From NCBI GenBank assembly GCA_036788215.1, contig DAIQNV010000002.1:37074-101073 (forward strand): a DNA stretch of 64,000 nt. The letters run 5' to 3'. The position numbers and the translations under genes were made by a program. The notes below the pieces were generated by a model. It ran no database searches and was not told the origin of the DNA. It saw only the letters and a program-made list of their open reading frames with translations. This DNA is from Phycisphaerales bacterium. Its GTDB lineage: Bacteria; Planctomycetota; Phycisphaerae; Phycisphaerales; UBA1924. Positions within the stretch are counted from its first letter, which is position 1. Each line of letters starts with the position of its first letter. Shown here piece after piece: positions 10,802-11,188 of this stretch.

Positions 10802-11188
10802 ATGATGAGTGCCCCCGCCGGGACCTTTGTCCCGAACGAGCTCTTCCCGATGCTCGGGAACCTTTCCCGCAACGACGCCGATTCCTGCGACTTCGGGATC
10901 ATCCAGCTCGACGACTCGGGCAAGGTGATCATGGTCAACCGCTACCAGTCCGAACTCGGCGGCGTCCCCGTCTCCCAGTTCGAGAACCGCAACTGGTTCA
11001 CCCAGATCGCACCCTGCACCAACAACGGGCTGGTCTTCGGCATGTTCAAGAAGGGCGTCGCCGCGGGCAACATGAACACCGTGTTCCCCTACACCTTCAC
11101 CTTCAAGATGAAGCCCACCAACGTCAAGATCCACTTCTACCGCGACCAGAAGTCGGGCCGGAACTTCGCGTTCGTCGCCCGCGCCTGA
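10802..11188 (+). CDS. pyp: Photoactive yellow protein (PYP) homologue, stand-alone PAS photoreceptor
   Basis: 128 aa. Aligns without gaps to Halorhodospira halophila PYP from FG(A/I)IQLD through NFF..APC to the C-terminus: [11 protein letters not shown]..., [44 protein letters not shown]. Chromophore Cys is conserved at codon 72 (11015-11017). An alternative GTG start at 10793 sits 7 nt after AGGAG. Confidence 0.9.
   Translation: [128 protein letters not shown]

Follow-up and report, generated by a model that had tools for sequence, protein, structure and literature searches.

Can a photoactive yellow protein (PYP) dispense with both residues of the hydrogen-bond pair that holds the phenolate of its chromophore, and what would then take their place? 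PYP is a textbook model of photoreceptor dynamics, and its mechanism is centred on the Tyr42/Glu46 pair and on proton transfer by Glu46. The question is raised by a stretch of 64,000 nucleotides (nt) from a Phycisphaerales bacterium (assembly GCA_036788215.1, contig DAIQNV010000002.1, positions 37,074 to 101,073 of the forward strand; hereafter the window), which carries a PYP gene with valine at position 42 and glutamine at position 46, directly preceded by a small gene that we call S1 (Table 1). Residues are numbered as in Halorhodospira halophila PYP, except where the numbering of the window protein in its form of 128 amino acids (aa) is used: Val45, Gln49, Trp65 and Cys72 correspond to positions 42, 46, 62 and 69. 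In our comparisons, the PYPs that combine Gln46 with a lost Tyr42 form one monophyletic clade within the Phycisphaerales, with 48 or more sequence clusters. We consider it fairly probable that the window protein is a PYP with a chromophore bound to Cys72, a rebuilt pocket and S1 as its partner.

The gene was first noticed in a preliminary description of this DNA as a 128-aa open reading frame (ORF) at 10802..11188 (+) starting with ATG 10802, and retranslation of the window sequence confirmed both the ORF and its product. The true start is probably GTG 10793, giving a 131-aa form at 10793..11188 (+), because this codon lies 7 nt after AAGGAG, overlaps the upstream TGA as GTGA and yields the length of a public-collection protein (P0001, 131 aa) that is 100% identical to the window PYP. 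In a phmmer search against all PDB sequences, the 33 distinct matches are all PYP, engineered PYP (FAST) or the PYP domain of Ppr, with the G47S and E46Q mutants of PYP at the top. The alignment is one gap-free stretch of query residues 17-127 against PYP residues 14-124 (E 7.2e-24), and identity to H. halophila PYP is ~35%. The lack of gaps that had been described therefore holds, while the alignment begins not at Phe28 but earlier, at PYP residue 14. All of the matching segments quoted at that time, including FVAR, are found in the protein, and so is the equivalent of the thioester cysteine: Cys72, within IAPCT, aligns with Cys69. In a sample of 161 loci, made up of the window and 80 loci each from genomes and metagenomes, Cys69 is invariant (161/161), and Ala67, Pro68, Thr70 and Phe96 are likewise invariant.

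Another reading of the same ORF is that it encodes a generic PAS domain and no PYP. The PYP-specific model TIGR02373 (photo_yellow, equivalog), a score below whose cutoff had been proposed as a sign of just this, is matched over its whole length with 88.8 bits (E 2.8e-25), below the cutoff of 143.05 bits. However, the model recovers only ~20% of PYP homologues (Xing et al., 2022; PMC9664959), so that a score below its cutoff is poor evidence against membership. Furthermore, the Pfam PAS models give no match to the window PYP, while the PDB matches are confined to PYPs as described above. An AlphaFold2 model built with 28 homologues (pLDDT 89.3, pTM 0.84) has the PYP-type PAS fold with the N-terminal helical cap, and Foldseek aligns it with PYP crystal structures (2PHY, 2QJ7 and others) at TM 0.84-0.85 and E ~1e-12 to 1e-13 (best 3e-13). 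The best 40 Foldseek matches are only PYP or PYP-derived, and other PAS domains appear from E ~1e-5. A generic PAS domain is thus most improbable, and sequence and predicted structure together identify the ORF as encoding a genuine member of the PYP family. By sequence the protein is assigned to the Leptospira/Salinibacter-type clade B, in a Phycisphaeraceae bacterium as host. The nearest characterised relatives are the clade B PYPs of Leptospira biflexa and Salinibacter ruber (Xing et al., 2022), and the sampled family (Leptospiraceae, Bacteroidota-type and other phyla) shares the motifs YTFTYKMKPTNV and FFTQ(I/V)APCTNN.

What separates the window protein from these relatives, which keep Tyr42 and Glu46, is its chromophore pocket. 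Compared with H. halophila PYP (TIGR02373; 2PHY/1NWZ), the length class, the capped fold (TM 0.85), the gap-free region 14-124 and the residues Cys69, Ala67, Pro68, Thr70, Phe96, Asn43, Gly29 and Gly37 are kept, whereas Tyr42 is changed to Val, Glu46 to Gln, Thr50 to Gly, Arg52 to Val, Val57 to Phe, Phe62 to Trp and Tyr98 to Phe. Neither residue of the phenolate hydrogen-bond pair is therefore present. This is not a peculiarity of one gene. In the 161 loci, Tyr42/Glu46 is found in 121, Tyr42/Gln46 in eight, Val42/Gln46 in 25 and Ala42/Gln46 in one, and in all 26 loci with Val or Ala at 42 and Gln46, position 62 is Trp or Tyr (Phe elsewhere), position 57 is Phe or Tyr (Ala or Val elsewhere) and position 98 is Phe. 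A wider protein search returned 112 homologous clusters (90% identity), 48 of which combine Val, Ala or Cys at 42 with Gln46 and Cys69; every one of these 48 has Trp or Tyr at 62 and keeps the Ala-Pro-Cys-Thr loop. In a neighbour-joining tree, the Val42/Gln46 forms make up one clade inside the Phycisphaerales PYPs with Tyr42/Gln46 forms as nearest outgroups, so that the types are nested in the order Tyr42/Glu46, Tyr42/Gln46, Val42/Gln46.

Such a protein is not foreseen in the literature. Xing et al. (2022; PMC9664959) reported that Tyr42 and Glu46 are never substituted together in a PYP with Cys69 and concluded that at least one of them is required. In the survey of Dohmen et al. (2025; PMC12826048), position 42 is occupied only by Tyr (90.8%) and Phe (8.9%), and natural Gln46 PYPs are described as unstudied. 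The clade is therefore an exception that neither survey discusses; a natural, diverse and selectively maintained group without both residues contradicts the published rule. Indeed, the clade is not decaying: the ratio of nonsynonymous to synonymous divergence (dN/dS) between the window PYP and its nearest genome locus (L001) is 0.16, and the genes of the classical pyp operon are kept near most members, a gene for full-length p-coumarate-CoA ligase (pCL) beside 16 of the 25 Val42/Gln46 genes and one for tyrosine ammonia-lyase (TAL) beside 13.

How would the chromophore be held? From the retained pCL and TAL genes and the purifying selection, we infer that the cysteine of these proteins continues to bind a hydroxycinnamate chromophore. 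In the window protein, Cys72 would carry a thioester-linked chromophore of the 4-hydroxycinnamoyl type, and light would drive its trans-to-cis isomerisation and thereby change the conformation of the protein. Glutamine can donate a hydrogen bond and cannot donate a proton. Binding of the phenolate has probably been taken over by Gln46 and the co-varying Trp or Tyr at 62, which in the window protein would mean that Gln49 and, probably, the indole of Trp65 hold the phenolic oxygen; the part assigned to Trp relies on position 62 being a recognised pocket residue, as Phe62 is counted among those of the pocket (Dohmen et al., 2025; PMC12826048). The residues present make the classical Glu46 proton transfer impossible in the window PYP, and the photocycle would accordingly run with no proton passed from position 46 to the chromophore. 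The resting chromophore may be either red-shifted as in E46Q, or mostly protonated and near-UV absorbing. The protein had been announced as a blue-light PAS photoreceptor; its place in the PYP family and its thioester cysteine hold, while blue-light photochemistry cannot be taken for granted with Glu46 replaced by Gln and Tyr42 by Val.

On the other hand, the window PYP might be an ordinary blue-light PYP, with plain p-coumarate and an E46Q-like cycle for which Gln49 and its neighbours suffice. The pocket changes would then merely tune spectrum or kinetics, and the operon nearby (see below) would have nothing to do with PYP. The retention of pCL and TAL near most clade members agrees with this, and so do the G47S and E46Q mutants as nearest PDB sequences; the single mutants E46Q and Y42F of H. 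halophila PYP are still photoactive (PMC9664959; PMC12826048). In the Y42F/E46Q double mutant, however, the chromophore stays protonated (cited in PMC9664959), and the strict co-variation of positions 42, 57, 62 and 98 speaks for a rebuilt pocket and not for fine tuning. The natural Gln46 protein Ppd-PYP of Thermochromatium tepidum and the E46Q, Y42F and Y42F/E46Q mutants resemble the window clade in having Gln46, with its weaker hydrogen bond and no proton donor, or in having lost the Tyr42 hydroxyl. Unlike in these proteins, both changes are natural and fixed in the clade, are accompanied by Trp or Tyr at 62 and Phe or Tyr at 57, and leave an aliphatic residue instead of Phe at 42. An ordinary PYP is accordingly a possible but doubtful account. 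With a rebuilt pocket, the clade would be a natural experiment in alternative tuning of the hydroxycinnamate chromophore.

The second question raised by the locus is that of the signalling partner. To our knowledge, it has been asked for decades which protein takes over the signal from single-domain PYPs. The window PYP had been described as stand-alone, which is right in that it is a single-domain protein but not in that it has no companion: S1 and PYP are predicted, from their overlapping stop and start codons, to be co-transcribed and translationally coupled. Neither Pfam nor NCBIfam has a model that matches S1, and each of the 35 close homologues is annotated as "hypothetical." A hidden Markov model (HMM) of S1 nevertheless finds it in 141/161 PYP loci (~88%) from at least eight phyla, and in 125/161 it lies directly upstream of the PYP gene, on the same strand and within 150 nt. 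It is under purifying selection (dN/dS 0.12 against L001). Its AlphaFold2 model is of modest confidence (pLDDT 67), and a comparison of this model with PDB folds gave no match (best E 1.1). A profile search covering 1.84 billion representative proteins gave 357 matches, and among the best 150 there are 51 proteins of 326-1290 aa in which 3-12 S1 helical units stand in tandem ahead of a PYP-fold domain at the C-terminus. These fusions (library proteins P0272-P0411) lie outside the window, and JGI gives one of them, P0278, the name "photoactive yellow protein." An S1-like partner or S1 repeats are not mentioned in the two PYP surveys (PMC9664959; PMC12826048), and in the literature clade B PYPs have been linked to sensor-less chemoreceptors, not to S1 (PMC9664959).

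From this conserved association, S1 is the likeliest candidate for a direct signalling partner of PYP, and it would relay the light signal as a co-translated protein. The only PYP partner with experimental support is PBP of Rhodobacter capsulatus (RCAP_rcc01067), a 142-aa neighbour that binds Rc-PYP in a light-dependent manner. Like S1 (110 aa), PBP is small, pyp-adjacent and predicted to have N-terminal helices and then beta strands, a comparison made by description only. Two other ideas about S1 were rejected. Its C-terminal helix and hairpin do not repeat the N-terminus of PYP (hhalign probability 0.2%). Also, the S1 HMM finds no S1 units inside the CheA-like proteins of 1200-1400 aa near some Val42/Gln46 loci; the co-clustering of S1 with those proteins was traced to similarity of S2 (see below) or coiled coils.

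The fusions admit a further reading, namely that the window protein is a non-photoactive PAS sensor whose PYP fold serves another ligand, redox sensing or the binding of S1-type helices, with or without a part for Cys72. Of 50 PYP-fold domains of the S1-repeat fusions, 49 are without Cys69, Tyr42 and Glu46, so chromophore-less relatives that work with S1-type helices do exist, and the fusions tie these helices to the PYP fold and not to its photoactive form specifically. Moreover, the classical pyp-pCL-TAL operon is absent at the window PYP, no pCL or TAL following the gene, and within the 64-kb window TAL is absent and pCL is represented only by a 211-aa ligase fragment without the P-loop. 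In the clade, on the contrary, the cysteine and its loop are invariant in the 48 clusters, pCL and TAL adjoin most members, and purifying selection is strong. A non-photoactive sensor is improbable in the light of this conservation.

A second small protein, S2, accompanies many PYP genes. It has ~135 aa, the motif TLAINYIELKSRWIA.NT.NY and no Pfam match, and is present in 122/160 PYP loci (for example, L002:6138-6545, L003:5265-5696 and L036:10340-10759). In addition, S2 forms the C-terminal domain of CheA (L050, L054) and the N-terminal domain of CheW-like proteins of 470-500 aa (L033, L039, L049, L070), and CheA-like genes flank several Val42/Gln46 loci. S2 could thus be an adaptor that connects PYP with signalling of the chemotaxis type: the fusions and the flanking genes point to a chemotaxis-type output, matching the chemoreceptor association of clade B (PMC9664959). 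By its size and position, the S2 family may be an equally good counterpart of PBP as S1, PBP again being compared by description only. S1 and S2, the latter through its CheA/CheW-like fusions, are in any case concrete candidates for signalling partners. The 64-kb window contains no S2 gene and no second PYP; since TAL and intact pCL are missing as well, the source of the chromophore and the rest of the signalling chain should be elsewhere in the genome or different.

Upstream of S1 and PYP lies an operon for a HemN-like radical SAM protein (rSAM), an HpaB-type hydroxylase and a truncated ligase-like protein. The rSAM resembles HemN, HemW, ChuW/HutW and NocN (class C radical SAM) in its radical SAM core and HemN-like length. 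Its PDB matches are HemN 1olt and NocN 9p2u, and its homologues carry HemN_C. Unlike HemN, HemW and ChuW, it reaches no equivalog cutoff (NCBIfam scores of 181 bits for ChuW/HutW, 170 for HemN and 164 for HemW, each below the model's own cutoff) and is part of an extensive, uncharacterised subfamily that is conserved in the PVC group and other phyla. HpaB matches E. coli HpaB (4-hydroxyphenylacetate 3-monooxygenase, 6b1b) over its full length (E 6e-163) and keeps its phenol-binding Arg/Tyr/His motifs (GWMGRTPDY and HAxVNPPIDR); it differs from the E. coli enzyme in staying below the TIGR02310 cutoff (600 against 885 bits) and in being coupled to the rSAM and ligase-like genes, and neither an HpaC reductase gene nor catabolic hpa genes were observed in its vicinity. 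The 211-aa AMP-binding ORF was considered as a mere decayed pyp-operon ligase, an idea rejected because short homologues regularly follow rSAM-HpaB far from PYP and because the gene is under purifying selection (dN/dS 0.27 against L001). Indeed, in all five sampled rSAM-centred contigs of Phycisphaerales-like origin (L164-L168), rSAM-HpaB is followed by a homologue of this ORF (206-393 aa).

The operon is associated with the Tyr42-less PYPs. Among the 160 PYP-centred loci and the window, HpaB is within 10 kb of 10/25 Val42/Gln46 genes and of 0/135 others. When L167 is added, HpaB is near 11/33 Tyr42-less PYP genes and 0/129 Tyr42 genes (Fisher p = 5e-9 with kinship ignored, the cases representing two independent losses of Tyr42). 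In L167, an S1/PYP/ligase-like cassette (L167:7845-9630, -) is divergent from rSAM-HpaB, and its PYP has Met42/Glu46 and belongs to a different clade with otherwise Tyr42/Glu46, that is, Tyr42 was lost independently beside HpaB. Three or four operon-PYP layouts can be told apart, including one with HpaB-rSAM between pCL and TAL (L011). Three loci with divergent HpaB-rSAM and the cluster order S1-PYP-S2-S1'-PYP2-pCL-TAL have a further PYP paralogue of the Tyr42/Gln46 type (L002:7015-7392, L081:11409-11759, L088:7038-7379), which shares 34-48% identity with the window PYP.

Perhaps, then, the chromophore itself is tailored: HpaB, with rSAM and the ligase-like protein, would convert p-coumarate or its thioester to a 3,4-dihydroxy (caffeoyl) or further modified form, whose ortho-hydroxyl would replace the lost hydrogen bond of Tyr42. 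Consistent with this are the finding of HpaB/rSAM beside a PYP only where Tyr42 is lost, the recurrence of this pairing in two independent lineages and several layouts, the phenol-binding motifs of the E. coli-like HpaB, and the homology of the third gene of the operon to pCL of the pyp operon. However, 15/25 Val42/Gln46 loci have no HpaB in reach, and in four of the five rSAM-centred contigs no PYP lies within 6-10 kb of the trio. The rSAM family is widespread at 60-70% identity in phyla where it does not adjoin HpaB, and homologues at 60-66% identity occur in Verrucomicrobia and others beside neither HpaB nor PYP, which suggests a general function and makes it less likely that the rSAM serves PYP alone. 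In most cases the ligase-like gene is truncated, with the P-loop missing, and local inversions of one ancestral adjacency could yield several layouts without selection. Tailoring therefore stays a serious but tentative idea; if true, these would be the first PYPs found in nature whose chromophore is not p-coumarate. It is rather unlikely that both parts hold together, that is, that the Tyr42-less PYPs of Phycisphaerae use an operon-tailored chromophore and that S1 is the direct signalling partner of single-domain clade B PYPs.

Returning to the proposal of a chromophore on Cys72, a rebuilt pocket and S1 as partner, several of the above observations weigh against it: the TIGR02373 score below cutoff, the lack of TAL and intact pCL in the window, the Cys-less domains of the S1 fusions, and the occurrence of the operon, and of rSAM homologues, apart from PYP.

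The presence of PYP in this lineage is not new in itself. It had been described as new biology in Planctomycetota/Phycisphaerae, with the reservation that related genes widespread in annotated Phycisphaerae would remove the novelty, and this proves to be the case. The 112 clusters include many from metagenome-assembled genomes (MAGs) of Planctomycetota/Phycisphaerales, and NCBI or JGI already list many of them as "photoactive yellow protein"; close homologues are present in over 20 MAG species of Phycisphaerales/Planctomycetota, and the loci L001-L023 (GTDB species representatives) are mostly from Phycisphaerales, Phycisphaeraceae or Planctomycetota. Remoter relatives are found in Leptospiraceae, Ignavibacteria/Kapaibacteria, Bdellovibrionota, Armatimonadota, Gemmatimonadota, Alphaproteobacteria and the cultured planctomycete Saltatorellus ferox. 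Among the 984 PYPs surveyed by Dohmen et al. (2025; PMC12826048), ~1% are in the PVC group including Planctomycetota, and the supplementary alignment of that paper includes a Phycisphaerales sequence, MBY0261368.1, in which the same signature including HYFTQIAPC is found. PYP in the Phycisphaerae lineage is thus already on record. The assignment of the window to a planctomycete-like, Phycisphaerae genome was correct, as its DUF1559 gene was confirmed and L001 belongs to an uncultured Phycisphaeraceae MAG, 95% identical and syntenic over ten genes.

Table 1. Features of the window discussed in the text.
Feature	Position	Strand	Evidence or remark
PYP-family gene	10793..11188	+	Homology, AlphaFold2 model, dN/dS
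Shine-Dalgarno sequence AAGGAG	10780..10785	+	7 nt before GTG 10793, read directly
Val45 codon (H. halophila 42)	10934-10936	+	
Gln49 codon (H. halophila 46)	10946-10948	+	
Trp65 codon (H. halophila 62)	10994-10996	+	
Cys72 codon TGC (H. halophila Cys69)	11015-11017	+	
S1, 110 aa, predicted three helices and beta hairpin	10464..10796	+	Stop overlaps PYP start (GTGA)
Leader of the S1-PYP pair, intergenic	10233..10463	+	Last ~140 nt ~93% identical to L001
HemN-like radical SAM protein, 452 aa	6683..8041	+	Pfam Radical_SAM
HpaB-type flavin-dependent 4-hydroxyphenyl 3-hydroxylase, oxygenase component	8038..9597	+	Pfam HpaB_N and HpaB; start overlaps rSAM stop by 4 nt
Truncated p-coumarate-CoA-ligase-like protein, 211 aa	9597..10232	+	Matches residues 18-227 of the 485-aa pyp-operon ligase; P-loop deleted
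DUF1559/N-methyl pseudopilin-like protein	785-1846		
LacI-family regulator	1887-2972		
GH149 beta-1,3-glucan phosphorylase	3013-6531		NF058639, 1214 bits; cutoff 1150 passed
ShlB/FhaC-type transporter	11325-13247		Directly downstream of PYP
TPS-domain exoprotein, 1388 aa	13262-17428		Two-partner secretion pair with 11325-13247
M61 glycyl aminopeptidase with PDZ, 990-aa reprolysin-like metallopeptidase, SecY (ribosomal-protein cluster), M28 peptidase, second unrelated radical SAM	17443-22356, 33078-34535, 47335-49533, 55875-57542		

Over the leader, S1 and PYP (10355-11154), the DNA shares 90-97% identity with L001, against ~80-86% in the flanks, and the synonymous divergence (dS) of this cassette is 0.19-0.28 compared with ~0.55 in neighbouring genes. 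Such low divergence reflects either constraint on synonymous sites or a recent exchange of the cassette. A structured, riboswitch-like leader upstream of S1 was considered and rejected: strong conservation is confined to the comparison with L001, six other loci share just the ribosome-binding site, the folding z is 0.02 and there is no Rfam match. The ribosome-binding site GAAAGGA before the S1 ATG is kept in eight loci. Across the 64 kb, neither tRNAs nor Rfam elements were found. The genes at 785-6531 are predicted by their families to form, probably, a laminarin/beta-glucan utilisation unit.

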